A DNA stretch of 64,000 nucleotides. Source: Gammaproteobacteria bacterium (GTDB lineage: Bacteria; Pseudomonadota; Gammaproteobacteria; Eutrophobiales; Eutrophobiaceae). Shown in pieces: positions 10,041-48,932 of this stretch. Made by a program: the position numbers and the translations under genes. The notes under the pieces were generated by a model. The model was not told where the DNA came from. It did not search any database and was given only the letters and a program-made list of their open reading frames with translations. The stretch is from positions 258,520-322,519 of the forward strand of contig JBDNFW010000033.1 of the NCBI GenBank assembly GCA_041689615.1. The letters run 5' to 3'. Every line of letters starts with the position of its first letter. The stretch's first letter is position 1.

Positions 10041-10078
10041 AACTTTATTACTCGTTCAGATTTATAAGATCTAAACTT

Positions 10079-16843: not shown

Positions 16844-16854
16844 CTGAGTACCTC

Positions 16855-17090: not shown

Positions 17091-17128
17091 GAGGTACTCA
17101 GTTTTTTAATGTGTTTCTTTGACATAAC

Positions 17129-19107: not shown

Positions 19108-20175
19108 ATGAAATCCAGAGAAGAATTTCAAACCAAACTTGATGACCTTGCCTATCAAAACAAGATTTTGCAGCATGTCTCTCGAACTTTTGCCTTAACT
19201 ATTCCGCAATTGCCTGAACCATTAAGCACGGTCGTAGCAAATGCCTACCTTTTGTGTCGTATTGCCGACACGATCGAAGATGATAAGAGCATGTCGGCTG
19301 AACAAAAAAAGGAATCTGCCGAGCTTTTTATCAAAGTTGTTAAGGAAAATGCTGAAGCTGAAGCATTTGCCGAAACCCTGTTTCCATTATTGTCACCGAC
19401 AGCAACTGAAGCTGAACATGATCTGATTTCCAATACGTCTCCTGTAATTAGAATTACTCACAGTTTCAATCAACGCCAACGCGCTGCTCTAGAACGTTGT
19501 GTCAAAATCATGGCCGATGGCATGGTAATGTATCAGGATGCTGAAACCCTTGATGGCGTTTCCGATCAGAGGGATATGGATCAATACTGTTATTACGTTG
19601 CGGGCGTTGTTGGCGAAATGTTGACTGAACTTTTCTGCGATCATTCGCCTGAAATCGATGCACATCGTGATGAGATGATGAAATTGGGAGTGTCATTTGG
19701 TCAGGGTTTGCAAATGACCAATATATTGAAAGATATCTGGGAAGATCATGAGCGCGGAGCTTGCTGGTTACCTCGCGATGTATTCGAAAAATACGGTATC
19801 GATATTCGTCATAAAGTACCAGGTAAAATGGGTGAAGGTTTTAATGAAGCTTTAATAGAATTGCTCGGTGTTGCCCATGCACATGTCTATAACGCTTTGC
19901 GCTATACTTTAATGATTCCCGAAAAAGAAAAAGGATTACGAAAATTCTGTTTGTGGGCCTTGGGTATGGCGGTATTAACTCTAGAAAAGATCAGACGACA
20001 GCCTGATTTCACGGAAGGTCAGCAAGTCAAAATCAGTCGTCGCAGTGTTAAAGTCACCCTCTTTTTGACAAGTCTTTTCGTTGGCCAAAATAGAATATTA
20101 AGTTATCTTTTCCAATTCAGTGGACGTCGTTTGCCTATGGCAAATATTCATGCGAAACTCTGCCAAAATCAGTGA
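19108..20175 (+). CDS. sqs: squalene synthase, single-enzyme eukaryote-like type
   Basis: 355 aa. SRTFALTIPQL...YLLCRIADTIEDD and YCYYVAGVVGEMLT match squalene/phytoene synthase motifs. It is the first gene of the hopanoid operon. Confidence 0.8.
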   Translation: MKSREEFQTKLDDLAYQNKILQHVSRTFALTIPQLPEPLSTVVANAYLLCRIADTIEDDKSMSAEQKKESAELFIKVVKENAEAEAFAETLFPLLSPTATEAEHDLISNTSPVIRITHSFNQRQRAALERCVKIMADGMVMYQDAETLDGVSDQRDMDQYCYYVAGVVGEMLTELFCDHSPEIDAHRDEMMKLGVSFGQGLQMTNILKDIWEDHERGACWLPRDVFEKYGIDIRHKVPGKMGEGFNEALIELLGVAHAHVYNALRYTLMIPEKEKGLRKFCLWALGMAVLTLEKIRRQPDFTEGQQVKISRRSVKVTLFLTSLFVGQNRILSYLFQFSGRRLPMANIHAKLCQNQ

Positions 20176-20274
20176 TATACATGACTATAACGCTGAAACA
20201 ACAAGGAGAATAAGGCGGCTTTCGACAGGGCAGTATGGTCTATCTGACTTCTTGCCCCACCTGTATTAAATAAC

Positions 20275-22221
20275 ATGACTTTTGAAACTAATAACGATAA
20301 TACGCCCAATCCAACGCTCGGAGAGTCGAACTCGAAGAAGCCTGCGATTAATTTAGACGAAGCGATTCAATCTGCTAAAAATAAATTACTCGAGCAACAA
20401 CAAGATGATGGGCATTGGGTCTATGAACTCGAAGCTGATTGCACTATTCCTGCTGAATATATATTAATGAATCATTTCGTCGATGAAGTCGATGATGATA
20501 CAGAACAAAAAATTGCCCAATACTTGCGTGACCAACAAAATGAAGATGGTGGTTGGTCGCTTTATACCGCTGGTGATTTTGATATTAGTTGTGCGGTAAA
20601 AAGCTACTACGCATTAAAAATCGTTGGTGATAATCCTCAAGAAGAACATATGGTCCGCGCAAGGAATATCATTTTAAATCATGGTGGCGCTGCTCGTAGT
20701 AATGTCTTTACCCGAATTTTGATGGCTCTGTTTCAACAAGTACCGTGGCGTGCGACACCTTTTATTCCGGCTGAAGTAATCATTCTTCCAAAGTGGTTTC
20801 CGTTTCATATCGACAAAGTATCTTATTGGTCACGTACAGTCATGGTGCCATTGTTTATTTTGTGCACCATAAAACCAAAAGCTGTAAACCCACGTGGTGT
20901 TGATATAAGAGAACTTTTTATAATACCGCCTGAAGATGAACAAAATTATTTTAAAGTAACAACTCCGCTGACTCGAGCGTTTCTAATACTCGACCACTTA
21001 GGTCGTTTAGCAGAAAAGATCGTACCTAAATTTGTACGACAATATTCTATTGATAAATGCGAACAATGGTCTCTTGCTCGAATGAACGAAGAATTTGGTA
21101 TCGGCGGTATTTTTCCTGCCATGGTTAATGTGTTTGAATCTTTAGTTATTCTTGGTTATAAAAAAGATCACCCGGCACGAATACAGGCACGACAAGCTAT
21201 TGATGCTTTACTAGTCAAGCGCGGTAACACGATGTATTGCCAACCTTGTGTTTCTCCTGTTTGGGATACTTGTTTAGCGGCGCAATCTCTTATCGAAACA
21301 GAAAATCAAAACGTCAGTACAGAAATAGAACATTCACTTGACTGGCTTAAGGATAGACAACTTAGCGATGAACCCGGTGACTGGCGCATCCCCAGAGCCA
21401 ATCTTGCTGGCGGCGGCTGGGCCTTTCAATATAGTAATTACTACTTCCCTGACCTCGATGATACTTCCATGGTGGCCTGGGCGATGCACAGAACTGGAAA
21501 TGATAAATATTCAGAACCGATTCAACGTGCAGCAAACTGGGTTGCCGGTATGCAATCGAATGGTGGTGGTTTCGGATCGTTTGAAGTAAATAACACGCAG
21601 TATTATTTAAACGCGATTCCTTTTGCGGATCATGGTGCTTTATTAGATCCACCCACAGCCGATGTGACCGGACGTGTTATTGCATTACTTAGTCTTGCCG
21701 ATAAAGAAAAATATAGCTCTGTTATTAAAGATGCGATTAATTTTATAAAATCTGATCAGGAAGAAGACGGTTCCTGGTTTGGTCGTTGGGGTACGAATTA
21801 TATATACGGCACCTGGTCGGTGCTAACCGCACTTGAACTTGCTGATGAAGATCTACAACAAGACTATATAAGAAAAGCTGTCTCGTATTTACAAGGCATG
21901 CAAAATGAAGATGGTGGTTGGGGCGAAAGTAATGATAGCTATTATCCTCCAAAACATTATCGTCCTTTTGAAAGCACCGCATACCAAACAGCATGGGCAT
22001 TACTTGCTTTATTGGCGGTTGGAGAAGCTGAAACAGAAACGGTTAGAAAAGGGATTGATTATTTGATCTCTAATCAATCCAATGATGGTCATTGGTATAA
22101 TGATAGTTATACTGCTCCAGGTTTTCCTCGCGTTTTCTATTTAAAATATCACGGCTACACAAAATATTTTCCGCTTTGGGCGTTAGCTCGTTACAGAAAC
22201 CTGTTGCACAATAAGGTTTGA
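20275..22221 (+). CDS. shc: squalene-hopene cyclase
   Basis: 648 aa. Multiple QxxxGxW (QW) repeats (QNEDGGW x3). DLDDTSMV matches the DxDDTA catalytic motif. Confidence 0.9.
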   Translation: MTFETNNDNTPNPTLGESNSKKPAINLDEAIQSAKNKLLEQQQDDGHWVYELEADCTIPAEYILMNHFVDEVDDDTEQKIAQYLRDQQNEDGGWSLYTAGDFDISCAVKSYYALKIVGDNPQEEHMVRARNIILNHGGAARSNVFTRILMALFQQVPWRATPFIPAEVIILPKWFPFHIDKVSYWSRTVMVPLFILCTIKPKAVNPRGVDIRELFIIPPEDEQNYFKVTTPLTRAFLILDHLGRLAEKIVPKFVRQYSIDKCEQWSLARMNEEFGIGGIFPAMVNVFESLVILGYKKDHPARIQARQAIDALLVKRGNTMYCQPCVSPVWDTCLAAQSLIETENQNVSTEIEHSLDWLKDRQLSDEPGDWRIPRANLAGGGWAFQYSNYYFPDLDDTSMVAWAMHRTGNDKYSEPIQRAANWVAGMQSNGGGFGSFEVNNTQYYLNAIPFADHGALLDPPTADVTGRVIALLSLADKEKYSSVIKDAINFIKSDQEEDGSWFGRWGTNYIYGTWSVLTALELADEDLQQDYIRKAVSYLQGMQNEDGGWGESNDSYYPPKHYRPFESTAYQTAWALLALLAVGEAETETVRKGIDYLISNQSNDGHWYNDSYTAPGFPRVFYLKYHGYTKYFPLWALARYRNLLHNKV

Positions 22222-34558: not shown

Positions 34559-34643
34559 CGACTTACTCCCGTCCTAAATATCCTTTAAATTATCTAATAA
34601 ACCTACCAATCGGCAATTGTTGTTCGATACTATGCAGCAAAAA

Positions 34644-36407
34644 TCAAGCCACATTTGCCACACGTTCAAGCTGCCATTCATATTCAACATTCAATGTACG
34701 GCCACCATCACTGTATTCACATTTTCGACATAAATCATATAGTAGAGCGATTCCCCTGCCACTTTTCATTGTGTTTTTTGAAAGTTCAGCCATAACCTGA
34801 GTATGATCGAAACCTATGCCATTATCTTTCATCGTAAAAGAAACAATGCCTTTTTCGTTTTCAACATAGTGATTAATTTCAATCAAAATATTTCCATCAG
34901 TCAATGAATTAAGCTTCGTCTGACGTAAATCATAATATTTAACAAAGCCATTTTCTTCTTCTTTAATAGATGAATCTAAATTTAAAATACCATGCTCTAC
35001 CGCATTTGAGTACATTTCGGTCAAGATTAAAAATATTTTTTCACGGTGACCACCAAAACCTTGCATCTCTACTATCGCCTGAATTAGACCGGGTATAGGA
35101 TTTGTTTTGCTAATAACATCCGTTTTTAAATCAAATTTAACATGCCAATCCATTGGCTTTATTTCATTAGTATGAATTTTATTTTTTCCACGCTTTTTAA
35201 TGAGTTTTTTATCACAATTAATTTCCAGCAATAAAACATCATCTGTTACGGAGGCATTGTTGCTAAATTTTTTAGTCTGATTAACAATAGCATCAACCCT
35301 CTGTTCTAAAGTGCAACTGGACCTAATTGCTTTCAGCAAACCTTCCTCACCAAACATCTCACCCCTTGCATTAAAAACTTCAATTAGCCCATCAGTATAA
35401 GCATAGATACGATCATTTTCTTCAAGGTTGACACTAATAGGAACAACATCTTTTTTATCAAACAATATTATACCTAAAGGCATGTGCATGGAATTCAAGG
35501 TTGTTTTTAATGCCCCATTAGAATTAATGACTAGTACATTAGGCATTCCGGCAATCCATAATTTCATTGATTTATAATCAAAATTGAATTCAATGATAGT
35601 TGCAGCAAGAAAACGGTCCGTAGGCAATAAGAAAAAAATCTTTTTGTTAATTGCTTCTATGATAACCTGGATATCAAAACCTTTGTTGACCATAGAATAA
35701 AATGTTTCACAGGTAATAATTGAACCTATCGCAGCAGGCAAACCATGGCCAGTATTGTCACCAATTAATACAACATGATTTCCGGAAGGTGTTTCTGCTG
35801 AACAGACAATATCACCGCTTAATATATTTTGCGCAACATAAGACCATTCAATATTTCCTGAATTATGAAAACGTGGTTTATGTATATTATAAATAATACT
35901 TTTTGCATCATACAAATCTTTTAATTGCTCATCGCTATGGCTTGCTAAGACTTTTTTTTCATCATACATATCATCATGTATTTTTTTTATACGCAGCAAA
36001 GAGTTTATTTTTGCGTTCAGCAAACCCTCTCTTATTGGTTTTACAAAAAAATCATCTCCGCCAGAGTCAAAACATCTCCCTAAAAATTCATCATCACTTG
36101 CTCCGGTAACGAATACGATTGGTATATATTTATCTGTCGACAACCTTTTCAGTATTCTTGTTAAATCATAACCACTAATATCAGGCAAATTTAAATGCAT
36201 GAAAACAATATCTGGTTTATATTCATTAAATTTATGAATTGCTGCATCACCATTCGGAGCAATGCAAACATCAAAATTATTATTAATGAGCAACCTGCTC
36301 AAAATAATTTGATCCATTCTTGATTCGCCAACAATAAGCGCTTTTACAGAATTATTATCTTCAGAATTAGTTGTATGCTGTACTATTGCAAAAGGGTTTG
36401 TGACCAT
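34644..36407 (-). CDS. three-domain partner-switching regulator: REC (apparently degenerate) - PP2C/SpoIIE phosphatase - RsbW-like HATPase serine kinase
   Basis: 587 aa. REC fold from residue ~20. PP2C metal-binding motif IGDNTGHGLPAA. Kinase N-box LTEMYSNAVEHG and G-box DNGIGFD. Confidence 0.8.
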   Translation of the reverse strand: MVTNPFAIVQHTTNSEDNNSVKALIVGESRMDQIILSRLLINNNFDVCIAPNGDAAIHKFNEYKPDIVFMHLNLPDISGYDLTRILKRLSTDKYIPIVFVTGASDDEFLGRCFDSGGDDFFVKPIREGLLNAKINSLLRIKKIHDDMYDEKKVLASHSDEQLKDLYDAKSIIYNIHKPRFHNSGNIEWSYVAQNILSGDIVCSAETPSGNHVVLIGDNTGHGLPAAIGSIITCETFYSMVNKGFDIQVIIEAINKKIFFLLPTDRFLAATIIEFNFDYKSMKLWIAGMPNVLVINSNGALKTTLNSMHMPLGIILFDKKDVVPISVNLEENDRIYAYTDGLIEVFNARGEMFGEEGLLKAIRSSCTLEQRVDAIVNQTKKFSNNASVTDDVLLLEINCDKKLIKKRGKNKIHTNEIKPMDWHVKFDLKTDVISKTNPIPGLIQAIVEMQGFGGHREKIFLILTEMYSNAVEHGILNLDSSIKEEENGFVKYYDLRQTKLNSLTDGNILIEINHYVENEKGIVSFTMKDNGIGFDHTQVMAELSKNTMKSGRGIALLYDLCRKCEYSDGGRTLNVEYEWQLERVANVA

Positions 36408-36410
36408 GAA

Positions 36411-36710
36411 TCAGGTCACAGTGAACAATTTATCAAAATGTGCGATCTGTATTATTTGCATAACGTTTTTGCTGGCATTTTTTATACTGATTTTGCCATT
36501 GTTTTTATCAGTATATTCCTTAAGCTGTAATAACATTCCAAGTGCAGAACTATCCATATACTGCGTTTTATTCATATCTAACACGAGTGATTTAGCGGAG
36601 GCTTCTTCATAAGCTTGTCTAAACTCTTTATGTAATTGAAAATCAAATTTTTCAGGCAAAGAAATTGTTATTTCATTACCATCGCTAGATTTATTTTTTA
36701 GTAGTCTCAT
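36411..36710 (-). CDS. STAS-domain anti-sigma-factor antagonist (RsbV/SpoIIAA/SypA-like)
   Basis: 99 aa. DSSALGMLL serine-containing STAS motif. Confidence 0.75.
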   Translation of the reverse strand: MRLLKNKSSDGNEITISLPEKFDFQLHKEFRQAYEEASAKSLVLDMNKTQYMDSSALGMLLQLKEYTDKNNGKISIKNASKNVMQIIQIAHFDKLFTVT

Positions 36711-36731
36711 AGTTATTTACCTGGTTTATTA

Positions 36732-37991
36732 TTAAAATAAGTCAATTTCACCTTCAGCCATCGAATTTTGAACTGCAGGTCTTTTATTAGGAAGACTGGT
36801 CAATTCTTCAGCGATTTGATTAATTCTTGATTGCACGTCATTAATCATCTGTTCTGCACGAACGGCATCTTCACATTCTTCTATTTCACACACACCTTCA
36901 GTAAATTTTTGCATAAACTCTGAAAGCACGTTTATTTTTTCGTCGGCATGAATAACAACTTGCCTGACAATATCTTCAAACTGAAGGTTCCTGATAGCGA
37001 CACTTGTTTTGTCTGATATCTCTGTATTAATAACGCCTGCCTGCTCGATTGACTCATCAATAAACGTTTCGAGTAGAGAGAGTGACCCCATCATCGTATC
37101 CACACTCTTTGTGCTTAACATAACCTGTGTCACATCCTCACTAGCAGTATCACCTACCATTTTACTGGCTGTCTGTAGTTTTGATTGAGCTGATGTAACA
37201 CAGCTTTTAATTTCATTATTTAAAATGTTCGACGTTATTGAAAGATTTCTAACTTCATCAGCAACGACAGCAAAACCACGACCTGCTTCTCCAGCTCTTG
37301 CAGCTTCAATAGCGGCATTAAGTGCTAATAAATTTGTTTGATCAGCAATTTGTTTAACTTCATCCAGAAATTTAAATATGGTTGCCATCTCAGTAGATAA
37401 ATCATCTATTGATAAAACAACGTCCATGCTGTGTTTACTGTTCTGGATCATTGTATTAACAAATTCCTCAAGAATTCCTGATGTTTTAGATATAAAACTA
37501 CCGATACTAACTATCTCTTCTTCAAGCTCTTTCTCACCTTCCGAATGTTTTTTTCCCACCACATGTAATCGGCCTGAAAGTTTACTAATCAACTCACCTT
37601 GTGATGACACATCACCACTAATCCCGTAAAAACTTTCATTCAAGTTCATTACTGAATTTGAAATAAGATCCCTGACTTGCCCAAGTTCAGTTTTAATTGA
37701 AGTCATGGACTCACCAATGATGTCATTGACTTTTCCTATCAAATTATGAACGGAGTCTTTTGTTTCTTTTTTATTCGAGCTATTGCCGGAACCCACAGCA
37801 ACATCACCGATTTGACCCTGTATTTGTTTTTCACGACGCATCACCGTCGATACCCAGGAAACAAGAATAAAAATAGAAATCAGCGACTCATGACTCGTAT
37901 TATCAACTATAGAAAAATAGACCAAAGCACCCCCACTCACTAAAAGAGGAAATATATAATTCTTAAGAGATTTGCTACTCTTAATGATCAT
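36732..37991 (-). CDS. methyl-accepting chemotaxis protein, membrane-anchored, without a periplasmic sensor domain
   Basis: 419 aa. Two N-terminal TM helices. Highly conserved MCP tip [32 protein letters not shown]. Confidence 0.85.
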
Positions 37992-38188
37992 TAAAAAGCT
38001 CCATTACATTACATTACATTGTCGTTCCATAAAATAATATCGACACAACTCATTAAAACTTTAAGGAACTTCGACGTTATTTATACTTTTTATAGTCCGC
38101 CATCACTTATCTTATAATGGTTATTTCACAAACAAACTAAATTTCTATCTTATTGATAAAAATAGATTTATTAGCTATTAATCAGAAA

Positions 38189-39298
38189 TTAAGCCGCCAT
38201 GGAAGCGCTTAAAGAAACCAGTCTGTCAACAATCTTATTAAGCGGTAATATGATATCTACAGCGTCGCGTTTTACAGCTTCACCCGGCATTCCCCAAACA
38301 ACACTGCTACGCTCATCCTGAGCAATAGTCACTGCGCCTGCTTGTTTCATTTCCAGCATACCTTCGGCACCATCGTCACCCATACCCGTTAAAATAACAC
38401 CCATGGCATTTTGCCCAAGTTGATTAGCAACAGAGCGAAACAAAACATTAACCGAAGGCCTATGCCGATTAACAGTCGGACCATCGTTTAAACGACAAAT
38501 ATAACGAGCACCGCTTTTTTCAACTAACAAGTGTCTGTTTCCAGGTGCAATATAAGCATGTCCTGCTAGTATCTGTTGTCCATCTGTCGCTTCACAAACT
38601 TTCATTGCCGATAAGCTATCCATTCTCAGAGCAAAGCTAGTGCTAAATTTTTCTGGAATATGCTGTGTAATAACAATACCCGGAGAAGTTGCAGGCATGT
38701 CTTCAAGAAGTTCCCTGATAGCTTCAGTGCCACCGGTAGATGCACCGATAGCAATGATTGAATCTGTTAATTTATAGTTTCGTTTTTTATTATTAAGCTG
38801 CAATACCACATCAGCATTATTCTTTCTGGTAACTTCATGCTTTTTAACCCCCTTATTACTCTTCTTCCGTTTTTCAGAACTTGATTTAACTTGTGCTACC
38901 GATGCAACTTTAACTTTTTCGATTAACTCTGTTGCATAGTCCTGTATAGAGTTACCAAAATTTATTTTTGGCTTAGCTATAAAATCGACGGCGCCCAATT
39001 CCAATGCATCCAGCGTTATCTCTGCTCCCGCTTCAGTTAATGTTGAAACCATTACCACTGGCATCGGTCGTAAACGCATCAAATTAGCAAGAAAGGTAAT
39101 ACCGTCCATATTAGGCATTTCCACATCCAACGTTAATACATCCGGCTTTAACTGCTTAATCTTATCTCTTGCCATTATTGGATCAGCCGCAGTACCAACA
39201 ACGTCTATTCCCTTGTCTGAATTGAGGATCTCAGTCAACATTTTTCTAACCAGTGCTGAGTCATCGATTATTAATACTTTAATTTTTTCAATTGACAT
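38189..39298 (-). CDS. cheB: chemotaxis methylesterase CheB (REC + methylesterase)
   Basis: 369 aa. REC motifs DDSALVRKML and DVEMPNMDG. C-terminal CheB_methylest domain. Confidence 0.9.
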   Translation of the reverse strand: MSIEKIKVLIIDDSALVRKMLTEILNSDKGIDVVGTAADPIMARDKIKQLKPDVLTLDVEMPNMDGITFLANLMRLRPMPVVMVSTLTEAGAEITLDALELGAVDFIAKPKINFGNSIQDYATELIEKVKVASVAQVKSSSEKRKKSNKGVKKHEVTRKNNADVVLQLNNKKRNYKLTDSIIAIGASTGGTEAIRELLEDMPATSPGIVITQHIPEKFSTSFALRMDSLSAMKVCEATDGQQILAGHAYIAPGNRHLLVEKSGARYICRLNDGPTVNRHRPSVNVLFRSVANQLGQNAMGVILTGMGDDGAEGMLEMKQAGAVTIAQDERSSVVWGMPGEAVKRDAVDIILPLNKIVDRLVSLSASMAA

Positions 39299-39318
39299 GT
39301 TTACCTACATTGAGTTTA

Positions 39319-39987
39319 TTAAAATAATTCTACATCACCTTCAATCTTGTCTTCTTCTAAATGTTTCTTATAGTCTTGCTCACGCATGACCACAGTATCA
39401 TTATTCATGGATCGTAATTTTTTAACCTGAAGTTTTCCTGTTTTTGGAAAATAACGCACTTTGCGTGGACAAACATCACCGACATCCTCACTCGCAATAT
39501 CGTAACCTTCCATTTCCAAATATTTTTTTATGAATGAAATGTTCTTACCACCAATATCATTCATTTTTGCCATGATCCTGCCTCCGCCAGTAATCTTAAT
39601 TTCAAAATTATTTTTCCTGCCACCATTTTTTAATAAGTCGTTAACAAGATGTTCCATCGCATCTGAACCATAACGTGCTGCTTTATCTATTTTGTTATAT
39701 TTCCAGCTGTCATCACCTTTCATATTATTCTCCGGCAACATAAAATGGTTCATACCACCGATACCCAATTTAGCATCACGAATACAAACTGAAATACAAG
39801 AACCCAATACGGTCGCAATTATTTCATTTGAACTTGTAACATAGAATTCACCAGGAAGAATTTTGACCATCTCCATATTCATCTGTCGACACCAAAAACG
39901 GTTTATGTTTTCAAAACCCGGTAAGACTTGATTAGATTGATTATTTATTGAATGTATTCCATTCGTTTTTGAAGAAGATTTATTCAT
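39319..39987 (-). CDS. cheD: chemoreceptor glutamine deamidase CheD
   Basis: 222 aa. LGSCISVCIRD...GGMNHFMLP matches the CheD catalytic Cys/His region. Confidence 0.75.
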   Translation of the reverse strand: MNKSSSKTNGIHSINNQSNQVLPGFENINRFWCRQMNMEMVKILPGEFYVTSSNEIIATVLGSCISVCIRDAKLGIGGMNHFMLPENNMKGDDSWKYNKIDKAARYGSDAMEHLVNDLLKNGGRKNNFEIKITGGGRIMAKMNDIGGKNISFIKKYLEMEGYDIASEDVGDVCPRKVRYFPKTGKLQVKKLRSMNNDTVVMREQDYKKHLEEDKIEGDVELF

Positions 39988-40005
39988 AAATAATATCTCT
40001 TTAAA

Positions 40006-40857
40006 TCAGGCTGCCTTCTGGTGTATGGTCTTTCCTATCAGCGTAAATCTATCAGTTACTTTATAAAGGCTTTCTGAATGACCAATAAACATATGTGCGT
40101 CTTCTTTAAGTTTGTTTGCAAATTTCTCAAACAAAACACGTTGTGTATCTTTATTAAAGTAAATCACTACGTTTCGACAAAACAAAACATCAAATTGGCC
40201 TTGCATTGGCCAATCTCCCATCAAATTTAACTCTTTAAAAGTGATTAATTCTCTGAGTTTCGGACTAACTTTTACTTCACTAGATTCACATTCAATTCCT
40301 GGTTTTGAGAACCATTTATTAAAACGCTCCTTACTTACACCGCTAATTTTATCTTTTAGATAGATACCTTGACTGGCTTTAGAAAGAACATTGGTATCGA
40401 TATCGGTTGCCAATATTTTAACGTCCCAACTATTAATATTTGGAATGGATTCGAGCAAGGTCATCGCAATCGTGTAAGGCTCTTCACCGGTAGAACAACC
40501 GGCAGACCATATTCGTATTTGTTTTTCTCGTTTTCGCTGTTGTAATAAATATTTAACGACGGTATCGCCTAAATATTCAAAATGATGTGCCTCACGATAA
40601 AAACTGGTTAAGTTGGTGGTAATTGAATTAACAAACTCAACCAGCTCACCTTCCGGATTATTTTTAAGTAAATGACAATATTGATCAAAATTATCAAGAT
40701 CGAGTTTCCTTACACGTCGCGCCAATCGACCATAGACAAGATCTCTTTTCTTTTCGGTAAGAGCAATACCCGTTTTTTCCAAAACCATTTTAATAAGCCA
40801 GTTAAAATGCTTATCAGTAAACTTAAATTCACGTCTGGATTCCATCTTTATCCCCAA
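40006..40857 (-). CDS. cheR: chemotaxis methyltransferase CheR
   Basis: 283 aa. FFREAHHFEYL and IWSAGCSTGEEPYTIAM SAM-binding motif. Confidence 0.9.
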   Translation of the reverse strand: MGIKMESRREFKFTDKHFNWLIKMVLEKTGIALTEKKRDLVYGRLARRVRKLDLDNFDQYCHLLKNNPEGELVEFVNSITTNLTSFYREAHHFEYLGDTVVKYLLQQRKREKQIRIWSAGCSTGEEPYTIAMTLLESIPNINSWDVKILATDIDTNVLSKASQGIYLKDKISGVSKERFNKWFSKPGIECESSEVKVSPKLRELITFKELNLMGDWPMQGQFDVLFCRNVVIYFNKDTQRVLFEKFANKLKEDAHMFIGHSESLYKVTDRFTLIGKTIHQKAA

Positions 40858-40883
40858 GAGGAAGATGTGTTAAACAATCTTTC

Positions 40884-41342
40884 TTATGCTGCTATCGAAG
40901 GAAGGTTTACAATATCTTTCATACCTAGTAATTCTACTGCGTGACAAAAAGCCTCACTGGGTTTATCCCAGATAACCTTTTTGCCTCCCTCTATAGCGAA
41001 CAAATAGAACCCCAATAATAATTGCAAGGCTGCTGTATCAACTTTCTCTACCTGATCTGATTCGAATACCAACTCAGTTTCATCAGGACTAATATTATTT
41101 AACTCCTCCATTAATTCTGCGATGTCTCTAATAGTAATGGAGCTTTGCAGCTTAATTAAATAGGGAGCATTTCCTTTCTCTTCAACAACACTATCTCCTG
41201 TTGTCACCGCCTCTATATTCTCATTAAGCACTGAGATTTTTTCTTCTTCGCTTAACCATGCAAGAGGATCAACACCAATCAAATTCGTTTTATCTTTTGT
41301 TTTATCATTCATAGTTTTATCCTGTTTATATCGTTCGTCCAT
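40884..41342 (-). CDS. STAS-domain protein (anti-sigma antagonist-like) inside the che operon
   Basis: 152 aa. The C-terminal half has the STAS pattern (VDTAALQLLLGF). Confidence 0.5.
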   Translation of the reverse strand: MDERYKQDKTMNDKTKDKTNLIGVDPLAWLSEEEKISVLNENIEAVTTGDSVVEEKGNAPYLIKLQSSITIRDIAELMEELNNISPDETELVFESDQVEKVDTAALQLLLGFYLFAIEGGKKVIWDKPSEAFCHAVELLGMKDIVNLPSIAA

Positions 41343-42078
41343 GTGCTAAATCCAGCGCTAATGATCCATAATCAGCAGCACCATTACTATTTTTCCTGTA
41401 TTCAAATATAGTCTTTCCAAAACTGGGACATTCAGCAAGAGCCGCCGCTTCACGTATCCGGGTAGCGAGAACCTGTTTAGGGAAATATTGTTTCAACGTA
41501 TCCATCACTTGTTGTGGTAATCGACGGCGTGTATTAAATCGTGTCATAACAAACGATTCATGGATCTTATGCCCAAGTTTTTCAAAATTTTTGAATGTCC
41601 CTATCAGGTAAGATAAACCTTGCAAGGAGAGGTAATCACCCGCTACCGGAATCAAAGCTTCGTTAGTGGAGAAAAGTGCATTTATGACAAGCAAACCAGA
41701 AGCAGGTGGACAATCAATCAACACATAATCCTGATCCTGAAAACGACCTTTCATGGCATCTCGTAATAAAGTACCGCGTTTAATACCTCGCATCGCTTTA
41801 TATTCAAGACTTCCTAACTCAGGCCCTGAAGGTATGAGTGATAAACCAGGCCGTACTTGTTTGACACAGTCCTCGATCGGATATTCATCCAGCAACACTG
41901 AGTCGAGCCCAGGATTTTGCAAATAATCTTCACCCAAACTCGTCGTCAAATGTCCCTGTGGGTCAAGATCGATGACTGTGACCTTGTGTTGGTTCAAAAC
42001 AAGAGCGTGAGCTAAATTCGCTGTCGTCGTTGTTTTACCAACACCGCCCTTTTGGTTGATAACTGCTATTGTGCGCAT
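41326..42078 (-). CDS. ParA/MinD-family ATPase associated with the chemosensory cluster
   Basis: 250 aa. Deviant Walker A motif NQKGGVGKTTT. Confidence 0.8.
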   Translation of the reverse strand: MRTIAVINQKGGVGKTTTTANLAHALVLNQHKVTVIDLDPQGHLTTSLGEDYLQNPGLDSVLLDEYPIEDCVKQVRPGLSLIPSGPELGSLEYKAMRGIKRGTLLRDAMKGRFQDQDYVLIDCPPASGLLVINALFSTNEALIPVAGDYLSLQGLSYLIGTFKNFEKLGHKIHESFVMTRFNTRRRLPQQVMDTLKQYFPKQVLATRIREAAALAECPSFGKTIFEYRKNSNGAADYGSLALDLAHGRTI

Positions 42079-42153
42079 AAGTTCCCTCCATGCTGTTGTC
42101 CACTAAAGACAAACCTCTACCCAAAGCTTCTAGGGAAATTTCCAGAAACTATC

Positions 42154-45100
42154 CTAGAACTCATCCCACTCACTATCGCTACCAGCACCGGCGGCTTTGG
42201 ATTGTACTTTAGCCGCTGATTTCTTAGGTTGTGATTTTTCTGGAGTCCATGGTCGTTCATCTCTACTACGGCGTTCACCTGCAGCTGCTGTGCTACCGCC
42301 TGTTGAATTATTTCCTGTATTGAAAAATGATATCAACTCAGTTAAACCTTTGGCCTGCTCATCCATGGATTCACTAGCCGCTGCCGCTTCTTCAACCAAT
42401 GATGCGTTTTGTTGCGTCATCTCGTCCATTTGCGCTATGGCTTTATTAATCTGGTCTATACCGGTTGATTGCTCACTACTGGCTGCAGCTATCTCGGCAA
42501 TGATATCGTTAACTTTTTGCACTGAATCAACAATTTGTCCTAAGTTGGTACCGGATTCATTAACAAGTTTTGAACCTTCTTCAACTTTCTGTACGCTATC
42601 ATTAATCAGTGTCTTGATTTCCTTAGCAGCTCCGGCACTACGTTGAGCCAGATTTCGAACTTCGGCAGCAACAACCGCAAAGCCTCGACCCTGTTCACCT
42701 GCTCGGGCTGCTTCAACTGCGGCATTTAAAGCCAACAAATTAGTCTGGAAAGCAATCTCATCAATAACACCTATGATATCTGCAATCTTCTTGCTCGCCT
42801 GATTGATTTCACTCATTGCGGCAATCGCATCAGTCACTACAGCTCCACCTTTTTCAGCTTCAGTTCGTGCGCCCGCAGCCAATTGATTTGCCTGCTGTGC
42901 ATTGTCTGCATTTTGTTTCACTGTGCCAGTTAGCTCTTCAATACTGGAGGCTGTTTCTTCTAACGAAGACGCCTGCTCTTCAGTACGTTGACTTAGATCC
43001 AGGTTGCCCTGTGCAATTTCATTCGCAGAAGTATTAATAGAGCTTGCACTTTCACGAATCTCACCTACCATTTTCATTAGATTGGAAATTGAAGTATTCA
43101 CCGCACCTTGCATCGTCAAGAACTGACCTTCGAATTCACCATTCATCGTCTGTGTTAAATCACCATCAGACAAACTTTCAATAACACGAGTTGACTCATT
43201 GATAGGCACAACAACTGCATCCATCAAATTGTTAATCGATGAAGCCAATCTCTTTGTAAAACCGGAAAAGTCATCGACTTCAAGTCGAGTACCCAATTCA
43301 CCATTAGTTGCAGCATTGATAAGATTTTCTATTTGTCGCTCTGCATTTTTTTCCTCAGTAATATCACGCCATTCAACCATGTTGCCCATGTAGTTGCCTT
43401 CGGGATCTGTAATGGCAGTGGCATTCAATCCAAACTCCATGCCACCTACTTTTATTTCAGCATTGGCAGGCAAACTAGCCACATCACCTAACAAACGTCG
43501 TTGATGTGCCGGATTTTTATGAAACTGATCTATACATTCGCCTACCAACTTATCAACATTCAGACTAGGCCAGATAGAACGTAATTCAGTTTGTCGATTT
43601 CTTAACATTTCAACAACAGCAGGGTTAACATAAGTGATATTCAAATCCTCATCACAAAGCATCAAGTTAGCCTGTGCGCCATCAACAGCCGATTGCAAAC
43701 GTGCCACTTCAAGATCACGTTGACGCATTGCAGTCACGTCTTCCCATTCCAGTGTTGTACCGATGTAAGTACCGTTCAGATCCATTTGTGCTGAAACCAC
43801 CAGTTTGAACTTGAGATCAAGAATTTCAATATCGGTTGTGTAAGGTAGGTTCTTTGGATCATCTAATAATTTACGTTGATGCGCTGGGTTTTTATGAAAC
43901 ACATCGATACACGTACCCATAACATTGTTTGCATCAAAACCAGGCCAATTCTCAGCGAATTTAGCCTGATGTTTTGCCAATAATGCGTTAGTTGATTCAT
44001 TAACATAAGTAATGATGAAATCACGGTCGATCATGATCATTGGTGATTGCGCACCATCAACAGCGACTTGTAAGCGAGCTGAGGCTATTTGTTGTTGACG
44101 TAATGCGGTACCATCAGTTGCATATTTGACAACTTTAAAAGTATTTCCATTCATATCAAAAACGGCGTTGTAACTTGCATTGAGCCAAAGCTCTTCACCT
44201 TTCTTATTTAAACGTTTGAATTGACCGCTCTGTGATTCGCCGTTACTTAACTTTTTCCAAAAATCCTTGTATTCCTGACTTCCTGCATAGGTAGCATCAA
44301 CAAACATACTGTGATGTTTTCCTTTGATCTCTTCTAACGTGTAACCAACTGCATTAGTAAAATTTTCATTCGCAGTAATAATCGTACCATCGAGATTAAA
44401 CTCGATCGCTGCTTGAGTTTTACTTATAGCGTCCAACTTTCCTGAAAAATCGGCATACTCAAGTTTTTGAGCGGTCACGTCAGTCGCAAACTTCACAACT
44501 TTATAAGCCTTTCCATCTTTAAAGACTGGGTTGTAAGAGGCATTAATCCAGATTTCTTTACCACCCTTTCCGATACGTTTGTATTCACCGGCATCGAACT
44601 CACCACGATTCAGTTTTTCCCAGAATTGTTTGTATTCCGGACTTGCTGCATAAGTAGGCTCAACAAACATACTGTGATGCTTACCTTGAATCTCTTCCAA
44701 ACTATAATCTATGACATTTAGAAAATTTTCATTCGCTGTGATGACTGTACCATCCAGATTGAATTCAATCGTTCCCTGTACCTTATCTATTGCGGTAATC
44801 TTGCCCAACAACTCTTCATGTTGTTTTTTAAGACTATCCAATTCTTGTTTCAATGTTTCGTTGTTATCTAAATTATCCATTTTTTGATCCTCTTCTTTCA
44901 TTTCTTCATTTCCCGAATTTTCGTATGCACCCAACATTGCTGATGCGACCGTGTTTAAAGCATTTGTCCAGGCCTGTTTAACATCATCGGTCCACAGGTC
45001 TCCTGCAAATTCACTCATTACTTCAAGTAATACTTCTGCTACTGCCGGATACTGCTCGGCAACAACACCATATTTCTGATGATTCTTTCCCAGATTACTT

Positions 45101-45336
45101 AGGGCTGGCCCTAATACATCGGGCTTACGAATGTTATTAACTACCAGCGCCAATCCGGACAAGAGTTTCTTTTCTTGCTCTTTCTGATCAACATTGGCAA
45201 ACATCGGTTTCACATCCGGGTAGCGTGAAAACAATTCACTGTAGAATTTTTCTACCAATGCCTCACCCTGAGGTGCAAGTTTGGCAAAGGTGTCTTCGAC
45301 TAATTTAATCTGTCTTTGGGTCAGCTTTTTGCTCAT
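42154..45336 (-). CDS. soluble chemoreceptor: N-terminal Vgb/Hmp-type globin, 4 PAS domains (two tandem pairs), MCP signalling domain
   Basis: 1060 aa. Globin domain (KNHQKYGVVAEQYPAVAEVLLEVM, proximal His context). PAS repeats (GTIEFNLDGT.ITANENF; FHKNPAHQR). MCP tip [32 protein letters not shown]. No TM segments are evident. Confidence 0.85.
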   Translation of the reverse strand: MSKKLTQRQIKLVEDTFAKLAPQGEALVEKFYSELFSRYPDVKPMFANVDQKEQEKKLLSGLALVVNNIRKPDVLGPALSNLGKNHQKYGVVAEQYPAVAEVLLEVMSEFAGDLWTDDVKQAWTNALNTVASAMLGAYENSGNEEMKEEDQKMDNLDNNETLKQELDSLKKQHEELLGKITAIDKVQGTIEFNLDGTVITANENFLNVIDYSLEEIQGKHHSMFVEPTYAASPEYKQFWEKLNRGEFDAGEYKRIGKGGKEIWINASYNPVFKDGKAYKVVKFATDVTAQKLEYADFSGKLDAISKTQAAIEFNLDGTIITANENFTNAVGYTLEEIKGKHHSMFVDATYAGSQEYKDFWKKLSNGESQSGQFKRLNKKGEELWLNASYNAVFDMNGNTFKVVKYATDGTALRQQQIASARLQVAVDGAQSPMIMIDRDFIITYVNESTNALLAKHQAKFAENWPGFDANNVMGTCIDVFHKNPAHQRKLLDDPKNLPYTTDIEILDLKFKLVVSAQMDLNGTYIGTTLEWEDVTAMRQRDLEVARLQSAVDGAQANLMLCDEDLNITYVNPAVVEMLRNRQTELRSIWPSLNVDKLVGECIDQFHKNPAHQRRLLGDVASLPANAEIKVGGMEFGLNATAITDPEGNYMGNMVEWRDITEEKNAERQIENLINAATNGELGTRLEVDDFSGFTKRLASSINNLMDAVVVPINESTRVIESLSDGDLTQTMNGEFEGQFLTMQGAVNTSISNLMKMVGEIRESASSINTSANEIAQGNLDLSQRTEEQASSLEETASSIEELTGTVKQNADNAQQANQLAAGARTEAEKGGAVVTDAIAAMSEINQASKKIADIIGVIDEIAFQTNLLALNAAVEAARAGEQGRGFAVVAAEVRNLAQRSAGAAKEIKTLINDSVQKVEEGSKLVNESGTNLGQIVDSVQKVNDIIAEIAAASSEQSTGIDQINKAIAQMDEMTQQNASLVEEAAAASESMDEQAKGLTELISFFNTGNNSTGGSTAAAGERRSRDERPWTPEKSQPKKSAAKVQSKAAGAGSDSEWDEF

Positions 45337-45380
45337 ATCAATATCCTTGGCATACTATAAAATAACCATTTTTAAATTAA

Positions 45381-45824
45381 TTAAACTGCAATTTTATGTT
45401 CAATTTCATCATAGGCCGCCAGCATTATTTCGGCGACGGTGTTCAGTGCATTGGTCCAGGCTTGTTTAACGTCATCCGTCCATAAGTCACCCGCCATGTC
45501 GCTCATGACACTCAGTAATGTCTCTGCCACTACCGGATAATGTGCGGCAACTGCACCGTAGCCTTGATGTTTTTTACCGAGATTACTCAAGGCAGGGCCT
45601 AAGTCCTCTGGTTTACGTAAGTTATTAATCACTAGCACCAGACCCGACAGAAGCTTCTTTTCTTGTTCCTTTTGATTAACATTCTTAAACATCGGCTTCA
45701 CTTCAGGATGACGAGAAAATAATTCACTGTAAAATTTTTCAACCAGAACCGCACCCTGAGGCGCAAGTTTACCGAACGTTTCTTCGAGTAGTTCTATTTG
45801 TGTCTCGTTTAGTGGTTCGTTCAT
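45381..45824 (-). CDS. single-domain haemoglobin (Vitreoscilla Vgb / flavohaemoglobin N-domain type)
   Basis: 147 aa. About 75 % identical to the globin domain of the adjacent MCP. KKHQGYGAVAAHYPVVAETLL aligns with Vgb [20 protein letters not shown]. Confidence 0.8.
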   Translation of the reverse strand: MNEPLNETQIELLEETFGKLAPQGAVLVEKFYSELFSRHPEVKPMFKNVNQKEQEKKLLSGLVLVINNLRKPEDLGPALSNLGKKHQGYGAVAAHYPVVAETLLSVMSDMAGDLWTDDVKQAWTNALNTVAEIMLAAYDEIEHKIAV

Positions 45825-45868
45825 TTTTTTGCTCTCTGATTCGACTAAATTATTATTCTGATTAATGT

Positions 45869-46411
45869 TTAGTGTGTTGTTGGACTTTTTTTTTGAGCAT
45901 TAGCTGAATTAACAACTTGAGTAATATCAATATCTGCATCAATAAGATGATCAATATCCAGCAAGATCAACATCTTTTCATCAACCGTTGCCAGTCCTTT
46001 GACAAACTTTGTATTAACGGCTTTACCAAAATCTGGCGATGGTTTTAATTGTTCTTCGGTCAAGTTATAAACATCGGATACGGCATCAACAATAAAACCG
46101 ATAGTTTTTTCCTTTTTCTCGGTTTTTGTCTTTAAGACGATAACAACTGTCGTATTGCTATATTCAACTTGTTCAAGTTCAAATCGACTTCGAAGATCGA
46201 CAATTGGCACTATCGTGCCACGCAGGTTCATAACGCCTTGTATATATTTAGGCGTATTTGGAATTTCTGTAGCACTTTCCCAACCTTTGATTTCCTGAAC
46301 CCTTAAAATATCCACACCATATTCTTCACCCGCTAACATAAACGTCAGAAATTGATTGGCATTATCTGAATCTAATTCAACAACACTTTCTTCTCTAACT
46401 TCAGCGTTCAT
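45869..46411 (-). CDS. cheW: CheW coupling protein
   Basis: 180 aa. GVMNLRGTIVPIVDLR CheW motif. Confidence 0.85.
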   Translation of the reverse strand: MNAEVREESVVELDSDNANQFLTFMLAGEEYGVDILRVQEIKGWESATEIPNTPKYIQGVMNLRGTIVPIVDLRSRFELEQVEYSNTTVVIVLKTKTEKKEKTIGFIVDAVSDVYNLTEEQLKPSPDFGKAVNTKFVKGLATVDEKMLILLDIDHLIDADIDITQVVNSANAQKKSPTTH

Positions 46412-46423
46412 AATTCCTTACTC

Positions 46424-48493
46424 CTATGCTGCTTGGTTATTCATAACAGATGATGTTTTATATTCTTCTTGCTTACGATAGAGACCTAATAGACTTGTTA
46501 CATCTAGAATCATTGCGACGGTACCATCACCTAAAATAGTCGCACCAGATACGCCTTCTACCTTTTGGAAATTTGTTTCCAGACTTTTTATAACAACTTG
46601 TTGCTGAGCAAGTAAGTCGTCAATAAACAAACCTACTTTTTGACCTTCTGATTCAACAACAACTAATAGACCATTTACAAGTTCTGTATTATTACTAGCG
46701 ACATTAAATATTTCATGTAAACGTAATATAGGTAGATAATCTTCACGTAACCTATAAACCTCTGCATCACCTGTAATCGATTTAGTGTGCTCTTCTTTTA
46801 TTTGTATTGATTCGATAATTGAAACTAAAGGAATAATGTAAGTTTGAGTACCTACTTTAATGAGTTGTCCATCGAGTATTGCCAGTGTTAATGGTAAGCG
46901 TATTGTAAAGACTGAACCTTTACCTTCTTCTGATTTAACTTCGACAGTTCCACCAAGGTCATGAATATTACGTTTGACAACATCCATACCGACGCCGCGA
47001 CCGGATACATCACTAACTACTTCAGCGGTTGAAAAACCGGCATGGAAAATAAGTTCATTAATTCTTCTATCCGATAGTGTTTCGCCTTCCTTAACGAGTC
47101 CACGTTCAATTGCTTTACTTAGAATTCGTTCTCTATTAAGGCCAGCGCCGTCATCTTCAATATCAATAACGATATTGCCACCCTCATGATAAGCATTAAG
47201 ATGTATTGTGCCTGTTTCCGGCTTACCTGCAGCAAGACGAACTTCAGGCATTTCGATGCCATGATCGAGTGAATTTCTTACCAGATGAACAAGTGGATCA
47301 CCAATCTTCTCCATGACTGTCTTATCAAGTTCTGTTCCTTCACCTGACAATTTAAGCTCGATTTTTTTATTCAACTTGCTACTTAAATCATGAACCAGTC
47401 GAGGAAATCGGTTAAACGAAAAACTGATTGGCAACATACGAATTTGCATCACATTTTCTTGTAGTTCACGCGTATTTCGTTCCAACTGTTTTAGACCATC
47501 GCTTAACTTCTCAACATCTTTCATATCAAAGTCTTCACCAAATTGTCCTAGCATCGATTGAGTGATAACCAGTTCGCCGACCATATTAATCAATGTATCA
47601 ATTTTATCTGTATTAACTCGTATAGAAGATGATTCGCTACTAGCACCATGGCGGTCAGTACTTCTTCTATCTCCTGCTCTTCTATCTCCTGCTCTTCTAT
47701 CTTCTGCTGATGCTACTTCTTTTACTTGATTATCAGTTGATGGCTTATTGTCATTATTTGTTTCAATTGAATCACTAGAACTAATTTGAGTGATAATTAA
47801 CTCGCAATCATCTTCTACCCATTCAAAGACTTCTTTCACTTTATCTTCGTCAACATCCGTCGTAAGAGTTAGATCCCATGACAAATAACATTCTTCAGTA
47901 TCGTATTTATCAAAGGGAGGCAGATTATCAATATGAAGCTCGGTGGATAATTCACCAAACTCTTCCAGTTCGCGGAACATGCGTAAAGGGTCATTGCCTG
48001 TCTGGAACATATGATGATGAGGTACAAAATTAATATGCCAACCAGAACCGGCTAGACTACTGTCACTACTTTCACCAGCGTCCACTTCAGTCTGAGAATT
48101 TGATTCAACTCCCAATGCCTTTTCTAGTTCACTCTGGACTGACTTGATATGCTCTTCGTCTATTTCTGTTTTATCTCGTGCTGCTGATAGCATCTCACGT
48201 AAGCAATCAACTGAAGTTAGTAATAAATTGACCTCTTCCTGATTCAGCTCATGTTTCCCTGAACGAACATCATCAAGTAGCGTTTCAAGAACATGCGTAA
48301 AACCGGTTATCTCATTAAAACCAAAACTACCACTACCACCTTTGATAGAATGCGCGGCACGAAATATTTTGTTTATTTCTTCATCACCAGGATCTTTATA
48401 ATCGAGCTCAAGAAGCTCGGTTTCCATAATTTCCAAGCCTTCAAAACTTTCTTCAAAGAAGACACCGTGAAACTGAGTTAGGTCAATCGACAT
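46424..48493 (-). CDS. cheA: CheA histidine kinase (Hpt-linker-dimerisation-HATPase-CheW)
   Basis: 689 aa. Hpt motif FRAAHSIKGGSGSFGF. HATPase G-boxes. C-terminal CheW-like domain. RRAGDRRAGDRRSTDR low-complexity linker. Confidence 0.9.
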   Translation of the reverse strand: MSIDLTQFHGVFFEESFEGLEIMETELLELDYKDPGDEEINKIFRAAHSIKGGSGSFGFNEITGFTHVLETLLDDVRSGKHELNQEEVNLLLTSVDCLREMLSAARDKTEIDEEHIKSVQSELEKALGVESNSQTEVDAGESSDSSLAGSGWHINFVPHHHMFQTGNDPLRMFRELEEFGELSTELHIDNLPPFDKYDTEECYLSWDLTLTTDVDEDKVKEVFEWVEDDCELIITQISSSDSIETNNDNKPSTDNQVKEVASAEDRRAGDRRAGDRRSTDRHGASSESSSIRVNTDKIDTLINMVGELVITQSMLGQFGEDFDMKDVEKLSDGLKQLERNTRELQENVMQIRMLPISFSFNRFPRLVHDLSSKLNKKIELKLSGEGTELDKTVMEKIGDPLVHLVRNSLDHGIEMPEVRLAAGKPETGTIHLNAYHEGGNIVIDIEDDGAGLNRERILSKAIERGLVKEGETLSDRRINELIFHAGFSTAEVVSDVSGRGVGMDVVKRNIHDLGGTVEVKSEEGKGSVFTIRLPLTLAILDGQLIKVGTQTYIIPLVSIIESIQIKEEHTKSITGDAEVYRLREDYLPILRLHEIFNVASNNTELVNGLLVVVESEGQKVGLFIDDLLAQQQVVIKSLETNFQKVEGVSGATILGDGTVAMILDVTSLLGLYRKQEEYKTSSVMNNQAA
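47637..47702 (-). repeat. 15-bp tandem repeat (ctcctgctcttctat, about 2.5 copies) encoding the RRAGD repeats in the CheA linker
   Basis: Direct tandem copies are visible in the DNA. Confidence 0.7.
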
Positions 48494-48551
48494 TATTTCT
48501 CTTCCTTAATGTATTCTTCATTTAAAATTCTTCCCTTAATAATTTTTCTAA

Positions 48552-48932
48552 TCAGGCAATAACTTTTTTAATGGTTGCGAGCAATTGATCTGGATTAAAT
48601 GGTTTAACTAACCAGCCTGTCGCTCCAGCAGTCTTTCCTTTGCCTTTCATATCGGCTGATGATTCAGTAGTTAACATCAACATAGGCGTATGTTTATAAT
48701 TAGGTAACTTACGTAACTCCTGTATTAATGTGATGCCATCCATATTCGGCATATTGACATCCGTCAATACTGCGTCAGAATTACTAGCTTTCGCTTTGTT
48801 TAGAGCATCCACTCCATCCACAGCTTCTATCACATCGTAACCTGCTCCTTTTAATGTGAATGCCACCATTTGGCGCATTGAAGCTGAATCATCTACTGTA
48901 AGAATTGTTGCCATAATAATTGATATCCTCAA
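48552..48932 (-). CDS. cheY: CheY response regulator
   Basis: 126 aa. Intact DD (TVDDSASM), phospho-Asp context LTDVNMPNMDG and KP. Confidence 0.9.
   Translation of the reverse strand: MRISIIMATILTVDDSASMRQMVAFTLKGAGYDVIEAVDGVDALNKAKASNSDAVLTDVNMPNMDGITLIQELRKLPNYKHTPMLMLTTESSADMKGKGKTAGATGWLVKPFNPDQLLATIKKVIA

Follow-up and report, generated by a model that had tools for sequence, protein, structure and literature searches.

Can a partner-switching regulator still be governed by phosphorylation when its receiver domain has lost the residues that would take up the phosphoryl group, and what would become of the switch if it cannot? The question is raised by a regulator of 587 amino acids (aa) in the DNA of an uncultured proteobacterium (~38% GC, found in metagenomes only). 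It is encoded within the window, by which we mean the whole stretch of 64,000 nucleotides (nt) analysed here, as the last gene of a chemosensory operon, and combines a receiver (REC), a PP2C-type phosphatase and a kinase/anti-sigma domain. Judged by its sequence, the receiver is an aspartate-less pseudo-receiver in which all three acidic active-site positions are changed. The gene, its domains and the active-site positions of the receiver are as follows.

34644..36407, minus strand: gene of the REC-PP2C-kinase regulator, CrsR/HsbR-type, 587 aa (open reading frame (ORF) and translation; Pfam)
35988..36347, minus strand: receiver (pseudo-receiver), residues 21–140, (beta-alpha)5 fold (Pfam, AlphaFold2, Foldseek)
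36324..36329, minus strand: Gly27-Glu28, codons GGC GAA, at the metal-binding pair D12/D13 of CheY; orthologues have GAT GAT or GAA GAT (alignments)
36195..36197, minus strand: His71, codon CAT, at the phospho-acceptor D57 of CheY; orthologues have GAT (Asp), AAT/AAC (Asn) or CAT (His) (alignments)
36105..36107, minus strand: Thr101, equivalent of CheY T87, kept (alignment)
36039..36050, minus strand: Phe120 to Lys123, equivalents of CheY Y106 and K109, kept (alignment)
35871..35987, minus strand: helical linker, residues 141–179, running on from alpha5 of the receiver (AlphaFold2: single helix 127–179)
35214..35852, minus strand: PP2C/SpoIIE serine phosphatase, residues 186–398, all metal-binding Asp residues present (Pfam SpoIIE)
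34674..35147, minus strand: RsbW/SpoIIAB-like kinase/anti-sigma domain, residues 421–578, N and G boxes intact (Pfam HATPase_c_2)

The receiver and its active site

The domain order of CrsR/HsbR-type regulators was recovered in Pfam as Response_reg (PF00072; residues 24–134 on profile positions 2–110/111, 68.1 bits with a cut-off of 30.2), SpoIIE (residues 208–396, 115 bits) and HATPase_c_2 (residues 455–573, 31.5 bits with a cut-off of 27.4). Orthologues of the regulator carry the JGI label “HptB-dependent secretion and biofilm response regulator”, which is the KEGG name of HsbR. NCBIfam has no specific model for the protein and returned receiver-domain matches only, far under their cut-offs, and a search of the genome contigs with the regulator gave distant relatives only (≤32% identity). 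The identical 587-aa sequence is present in two assemblies, the NCBI contig (331,706 bp) and Logan SRR9199117, for which the reads may be shared.

The AlphaFold2 model of the regulator has a mean predicted local distance difference test score (pLDDT) of 86.6, with ~90 in the receiver, and lays the protein out as a receiver, a long helix (127–179) leading into the PP2C domain, and then the kinase domain. The receiver strands (21–26, 45–50, 67–71, 97–101 and 119–122) alternate with five helices, and the modelled domain superimposes on solved canonical receivers with a root-mean-square deviation of 1.2–1.6 Å and a TM score of ~0.9 (Foldseek). The top solved matches of the whole model are RssB of Pseudomonas aeruginosa (3f7a, E = 3e-23) and the RsbU-RsbW domains of Rv1364c (3ke6).

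An earlier note on this DNA had described the receiver as degenerate, with His at the phospho-acceptor position and Gly-Glu in place of the acidic pair, and this was borne out by the register of Pfam, phmmer, BLASTP and MAFFT alignments and of the AlphaFold2 model. In ungapped phmmer alignments the DD/ED pair of the PleD and 6zxc receivers falls over G27-E28 and their acceptor Asp over H71. BLASTP pairs the segment VISDWNMPNMDG of Escherichia coli CheY, which contains D57, with VFMHLNLPDISG of the regulator, and pairs LTVDDS and LTDVNMP of the CheY encoded in the window with LIVGES and FMHLNLP, in an alignment that is gap-free over 115 residues. MAFFT alignments of up to 267 family members set PDIVFMHLNLPD of the regulator where the syntenic orthologues have PDIVFMDLNLPD. 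In the model, G27/E28, H71, T101 and K123 are found at the C-terminal ends of strands β1, β3, β4 and β5, as in every receiver.

A shift of register that would bring an Asp to the acceptor position did not occur in any alignment, including the alignment to the Pfam Response_reg profile, the result on which the earlier claim could have fallen; the flanks of the His (PDIVFM-LNLPD) match those of the Asp-bearing orthologues. Of the residues of a competent receiver, the acceptor Asp is therefore missing and the acidic pair consists of one non-acidic residue and one Glu, whereas the Thr and Lys (T101 and K123) are present, as had been noted before. The interval to which that observation was tied (36100-36407) corresponds to residues 1–102 and so takes in G27, E28, H71 and T101, but not K123 (36039-36041). 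Also kept are F120 at K-3 (the Y106 equivalent), P75 (D+4) and G79 (D+8). A domain that is recognised by PF00072 and has lost its acceptor Asp falls under the definition of a pseudo-receiver, or aspartate-less receiver (ALR), which requires at least one of the five active-site residues to be missing from a computationally identified receiver (PMC12632262, PMC4395418). Each of the codons GGC, GAA and CAT is one base away from GAY. The CheY (48552..48932) and CheB (38189..39298) of the operon have the DD pair, the acceptor D, the T/S and the K all in place, and had rightly been called canonical.

Repeated loss of the acceptor aspartate

Domains without the acceptor Asp make up ~2% of PF00072 (PMC12632262), so that a single Asp-less receiver is unremarkable by itself; the notable part is the enrichment of Asp loss among close orthologues. 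Thirteen of the 37 sequences in the closest clade (42–65% identity to the regulator and with the acceptor residue present; no relative above 65% identity was sampled) lack the Asp, and have instead Asn (10), His (2, the regulator itself and the homologue P0008) or Ser (1). The more distant sequences among the best 120 matches lack it in one case out of 81, and the canonical DD-D-T-K set is found in 93 of the 120. Among representatives of the wider family (50%-identity clusters) it is missing in 7/144, or ~5%. The enrichment of 13/37 over 7/144 gives a Fisher p of 4e-6 for sequences that are not independent. The seven wider-family representatives (P0130, P0194, P0226, P0232, P0250, P0261 and P0268) have N, E, E, Y, N, T and R, respectively, and often carry further active-site changes; pseudo-receivers are therefore found sporadically across the REC-PP2C-kinase architecture, beyond the lineage of the regulator.

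Five orthologous loci share with the window the gene order of che genes, STAS gene, regulator, CitMHS transporter and Mrp genes. Across these, the acceptor residue of the regulator is Asp in L025, Asn in L024, L026 and L029, and His in L028 and in the window. The relationships were examined in a neighbour-joining tree calculated with our own code from residues 141–582 only, with 300 bootstraps; the receiver was left out, and convergence within it therefore cannot bias the tree. P0008 (His) joins P0006 (Asp) in 285/300 bootstraps, P0034 (Ser) joins P0018 (Asp) in 238/300, and an Asn clade of seven members is recovered in 185/300; in a full-length tree P0130 (Asn) is placed at the base of the clade. 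These positions argue for at least three well-supported independent losses of the Asp and probably for five or more.

The earlier note had suggested examining whether orthologues conserve the His, and they do not: most have Asp, many have Asn, and there is one other His lineage, gained independently. A conserved His was rejected: apart from the regulator it occurs in P0008 and the two near-identical members of its cluster alone, and P0008 groups with the regulator in 0/300 bootstraps; on this tree the two occurrences of His are of independent origin. His71 would therefore be one outcome of recurrent Asp loss and no conserved catalytic or sensing residue. P0008 comes from locus L028 (GCA_024449705.1, contig JAANSU011943637.1, 7.6 kb), in an assembly with contig numbers that reach millions, which suggests bacterial sequence within a large eukaryotic or environmental assembly. 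P0121/P0122 differ from P0008 at 1–2 residues, all within the receiver.

The enzyme domains have remained the same across these changes. Eighty relatives, with or without the acceptor Asp, all have D199, D217, G220-H221-G222, D339-G340 and D389-D390 in the PP2C domain and E464, N468, H472, G530 and G552 in the N and G boxes of the kinase. The receiver does not follow this pattern, in comparisons that are to be read as trends and not as formal tests (the sequences are phylogenetically non-independent). The ratio of receiver divergence to divergence of the rest (dREC/dRest) is 0.92 for canonical pairs versus 1.2–1.4 for Asp-less pairs, and P0022 and P0026 are 56% identical in the receiver versus 83–89% in the enzyme domains. 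On a receiver profile built from distant relatives of canonical type, in which the five active-site columns were masked, Asp-bearing orthologues score 114–142 bits, the regulator from the window 124, and P0004, P0005 and P0008 126–132. Scores fall to 50–107 bits in the Asn clade, P0034 and P0037, in which those of the PP2C and kinase domains are unchanged. Receiver traits lost in the older Asp-less lineages are G79, K123 (to T or R) and helices α2/α3. By these scores the pseudo-receivers fall into two stages, young or conservative ones, to which the receiver in the window belongs, and eroded ones.

Between genomes, the regulator is 55–65% identical, compared with 84–90% for squalene-hopene cyclase and 80–91% for the STAS antagonist (the last figure compares the window with the orthologous loci). 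The rate of change is thus unusually high in the regulator and not in its presumed substrate. The ratio of nonsynonymous to synonymous substitution (dN/dS) was unusable on the receiver because synonymous sites are saturated (nearest relatives ~64% identical) and the near-identical set differs too little.

The chemosensory operon and related switches

The STAS antagonist is encoded upstream of the regulator on the same strand, its stop codon 3 nt before the regulator ATG, and both genes follow an operon at 36732..48932 on the minus strand that is transcribed with CheY first and the second methyl-accepting chemotaxis protein (MCP) last. The names CheA, CheW, CheR and CheD are taken over from Pfam-annotated genes at the matching places of the orthologous loci, where the genes come in the same order.

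36411..36710, minus strand: STAS anti-sigma-factor antagonist, 99 aa, presumed substrate (Pfam STAS, 49.7 bits)
36732-37991, minus strand: second MCP (Pfam)
38189-39298, minus strand: CheB (Pfam)
39319-39987, minus strand: CheD (named from annotated counterparts)
40006-40857, minus strand: CheR (named from annotated counterparts)
40884-41342, minus strand: STAS-like (STAS_2-like) protein, 152 aa (Pfam)
41326-42078, minus strand: ParA-like protein (ParA/MinD-like ATPase; NCBIfam)
42154-45336, minus strand: globin-PAS-MCP, 1060 aa (Pfam)
45381-45824, minus strand: stand-alone globin, 147 aa (NCBIfam)
45869-46411, minus strand: CheW (named from annotated counterparts)
46424-48493, minus strand: CheA (named from annotated counterparts)
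48552-48932, minus strand: CheY (Pfam)

With the NCBIfam model for anti-sigma factor antagonists (TIGR00377) the STAS protein scores 50.4 bits, just below the cut-off of 53.45. Its phospho-serine motif DSSALG is conserved in all six loci, among which the protein is 75–95% identical whether the regulator has D, N or H. The STAS gene and the regulator are the last genes of a CheY-CheA-CheW-MCP-CheR-CheD-CheB-MCP locus in the window and in the five orthologous loci, a locus that resembles the F7 type in its gene order (as described in PMC9855816). Every orthologue examined has the regulator gene in its che operon, and where receivers are eroded the Che genes are still intact; the Che system therefore has some role that is independent of phosphorylating the regulator.

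Two further features of the operon were observed. Over 139 residues the stand-alone globin matches the N-terminal globin domain of the adjacent globin-PAS-MCP at 75% identity. L024, L025, L026 and L029, the four orthologous loci that extend into this part of the operon, have the MCP directly after CheW and no separate globin gene, so the extra gene appears to have arisen by duplication of the sensor domain in this lineage. The ParA-like/STAS-like pair between the MCP and CheR is also found in L024, L025, L026 and L029, again the four loci that extend this far, and may be an array-positioning module; Shewanella che1 as described has no such pair (PMC9855816).

The nearest described counterpart of this arrangement is CrsR/CrsA of Shewanella oneidensis, with the same order of receiver, PP2C and GHKL kinase/anti-sigma domain and an adjoining STAS antagonist (PMC6482189), an anti-sigma-S partner switch that closes the che1 locus (PMC9855816). 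That locus, too, contains CheA, CheY, CheW, CheR, CheD, CheB and two MCPs, one of them of the cytoplasmic haem/PAS type (PMC9855816), whereas the operon in the window adds the ParA-like/STAS-like pair and the stand-alone globin. Unlike CrsR, here compared by its description only, the regulator is without an acceptor Asp and has just one of the two acidic-pair residues. It also shares its three domains and a STAS partner with a phospho-serine with HsbR/HsbA of P. aeruginosa and P. putida, a likeness of architecture and JGI label. HsbR differs in that HptB phosphorylates its receiver and the two genes are found together; the regulator is Asp-less and belongs to a che operon. For the receiver-linker-PP2C part the best structural match is RssB (3f7a/3eq2), a ClpXP adaptor that is tied to sigma-S control; in contrast to the regulator, RssB has two domains, no kinase domain and a retained acceptor Asp, and identity to the structures is 12–18%. 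In E. coli RssB the PP2C domain is catalytically dead. No rpoS gene was found within the 64,000-nt window.

A promoter and terminator scan of 34300-38400 found promoter-like sites to be less frequent than in shuffled sequence and gave no terminator on the minus strand, a result that says nothing on transcription units. The Rfam scan of the window gave no rRNA and no other RNA. Elsewhere in the window, a Pfa-type polyunsaturated fatty acid/polyketide synthase cluster occupies 3468..18817 on the minus strand. It comprises an ORF of 2254 aa with the order KS-AT-4xACP-KR-DH, an ORF of 2190 aa with KS, a weak AT match and FabA-like domains, and an enoyl-reductase-like ORF (17129..18817; NMO plus a FabD helical insert), with a KAS III-like ORF and a hydrolase downstream. 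Hopanoid genes at 19108..22221 on the plus strand adjoin this cluster and encode a squalene/phytoene synthase-like protein and squalene-hopene cyclase, the closest named relatives of which are “Proteobacteria bacterium” metagenome-assembled genomes only.

How the switch is probably set without an acceptor aspartate

We consider it probable that the regulator carries a phosphorylation-incompetent pseudo-receiver within a working partner switch, the balance of which is set without phospho-input. The regulator would probably act on the product of the STAS gene that precedes its own in the last part of the chemosensory operon. The receiver has been stripped of its three acidic active-site residues by one base change each (D to G27, D to E28 and D to H71), and its fold and the conformational-switch residues T101, F120, K123, P75 and G79 are intact. 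Without an acceptor Asp, the receiver would offer no site to a phosphoryl group from CheA, an Hpt protein or acetyl phosphate, and Asp phosphorylation would no longer set the balance of kinase and phosphatase. The mode of regulation that characterises the family, a switch between both activities through phosphorylation of the receiver Asp, is accordingly predicted to be absent here. The kinase/phosphatase switch is most likely still in working order, given the strong constraint on the STAS protein and on both enzyme domains. In the HsbR system, the unphosphorylated regulator is a kinase that acts on a serine of its STAS partner, and phosphorylation of the receiver by HptB turns it into a phosphatase (PMC6482189; bioRxiv 10.1101/2024.11.25.625174). 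By analogy, the default state would probably be kinase-dominant, with the STAS protein phosphorylated and the sigma factor held. Release of the sigma factor could then follow from inputs that bypass the receiver, such as the ATP level, a cofactor of the phosphatase, expression of the che operon or protein contacts. Phospho-input to the regulator appears dispensable in this lineage because the Asp has been lost recurrently and the erosion that followed is confined to the receiver.

Several points weigh against this account. The incapacity for phosphorylation is read from the sequence alone, and the direction of the default state is taken by analogy with HsbR only; CrsR and HsbR bind different forms of their STAS partners (PMC6482189). 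To speak of a loss of Che input is to make an assumption about the phosphodonor of the canonical orthologues. The neighbour-joining tree, with its moderate support, does not fix the place of the regulator among P0003 (Asp) and P0004/P0005 (Asn). Finally, bar the three acidic residues, its receiver is as conserved as canonical ones, which suits a recent loss and a still-selected, regulated pseudo-receiver equally.

A regulated pseudo-receiver that docks, putatively, on the chemosensory machinery was the idea of the earlier note. The receiver would go on toggling between conformations, driven by non-covalent binding of a partner such as CheA P1/P2, phospho-CheY or CheB in a heterodimer, the ParA-like/STAS-like pair or a small ligand, and the activity of the array would set the phosphatase/kinase balance stoichiometrically and not by phosphotransfer. 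The retention of T101, F120, K123, P75 and G79 together with a masked-profile score in the canonical range would agree with such docking, as would the place of the gene within the che operon of each orthologue studied and the integrity of the Che genes next to eroded receivers; competitor-binding and heterodimer models have, moreover, been put forward for pseudo-receivers whose genes lie in two-component operons (PMC12632262, section 19). We nevertheless regard it as unlikely, since the older Asp-less receivers erode (50–107 bits) with enzyme scores unchanged, a course contrary to that expected of a conserved docking surface, no new conserved residue marks a new site, and Asp, Asn, His and Ser coexist in syntenic orthologues. 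Erosion of the receiver and not of the enzyme domains favours loss of input over the gain of a conserved docking role. A quite improbable reading is that the pseudo-receiver acts as a non-covalent sensor with a Thr/Phe/Lys switch, flipped by a chemosensory component that binds stoichiometrically (CheA P1/P2, or phospho-CheY/CheB in a heterodimer) or by protonation or metal at the His71/Glu28/Lys123 pocket. If this were true, the chemosensory array would have repeatedly rewired its sigma-factor partner-switch output from phosphotransfer to binding, and the Asp/Asn/His orthologue pairs would be natural controls.

An assembly or sequencing error, or a gene in early pseudogenisation, might account for three single-base changes in a protein with no sampled relative above 65% identity and an unusually fast rate throughout (55–65% identity as against 84–90% for the cyclase). 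We find this very unlikely: the identical protein occurs in two assemblies (possibly from shared reads), three errors on exactly the three acidic active-site codons are implausible, and equivalent losses are present in many independent contigs and samples. The ORF, for its part, is unbroken, with translational coupling to the STAS gene, and every catalytic residue of the PP2C and kinase domains is present. Least likely of all is that the receiver is still covalently modified, with His71 phosphorylated from CheA or Hpt or with another residue as acceptor. His does carry phosphoryl groups in Hpt and HisKA domains, and the regulator keeps K123 and T101, whose equivalents in normal receivers touch the phosphoryl group; G27, however, takes away one member of the metal-binding pair, and phospho-His is no conserved requirement where close orthologues have Asn or Ser and the two His lineages are independent. 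CheY D57N can use Ser56; the residue at D-1 in the regulator is Met70, so there is no Ser at this position. A survey of ALRs raised alternative post-translational modification at the substituted positions, but besides histidine-kinase phosphorylation none is described at the acceptor position (PMC4395418).

A phosphorylation-incompetent pseudo-receiver in a working switch, the reading we prefer, would join known ALRs and pseudo-receivers such as RitR, FrzS, ChxR, the second domain of PleD, ShkA and CikA, which are also recognised by PF00072 and lack the acceptor Asp. Pseudo-receivers account for ~6% of bacterial receiver domains (PMC12632262). About half of them keep the T, the K and the aromatic switch residue, as the regulator does, and changes in the acidic pair are typical (PMC12632262, PMC4395418). 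Asn is a common replacement at the acceptor position of ALRs (16%), and Arg, Lys and His together contribute 4% (PMC4395418). The regulator thus differs from known ALRs in its rare His and in its PP2C-kinase partner-switch output, and also in that the Asp has been lost repeatedly within a set of syntenic orthologues in which the receiver otherwise remains canonical. HsbR, RssB and SpoIIE are absent from two reviews of pseudo-receivers (PMC12632262, PMC4395418), in which PP2C appears once in another context, and a text search of the literature pairing HsbR or partner switching with pseudo-receiver terms gave no paper joining both. What is new here is modest, both kinds of protein being already known: an aspartate-less receiver in the CrsR/HsbR architecture, of which we found no earlier report.

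The regulation of bacterial pseudo-receivers was called “a mystery” in a 2025 review (PMC12632262), and the rise of pseudo-receivers from working receivers is seldom seen. This lineage provides a comparative series of Asp, Asn, His and Ser orthologues with independent losses and varied degrees of erosion, against constant enzyme domains and a constant STAS substrate. The link from the Che system to the switch is merely presumed in Shewanella (PMC9855816), and the series could reveal how a CrsR/HsbR-type switch behaves without phospho-input and whether the Che system feeds the switch.

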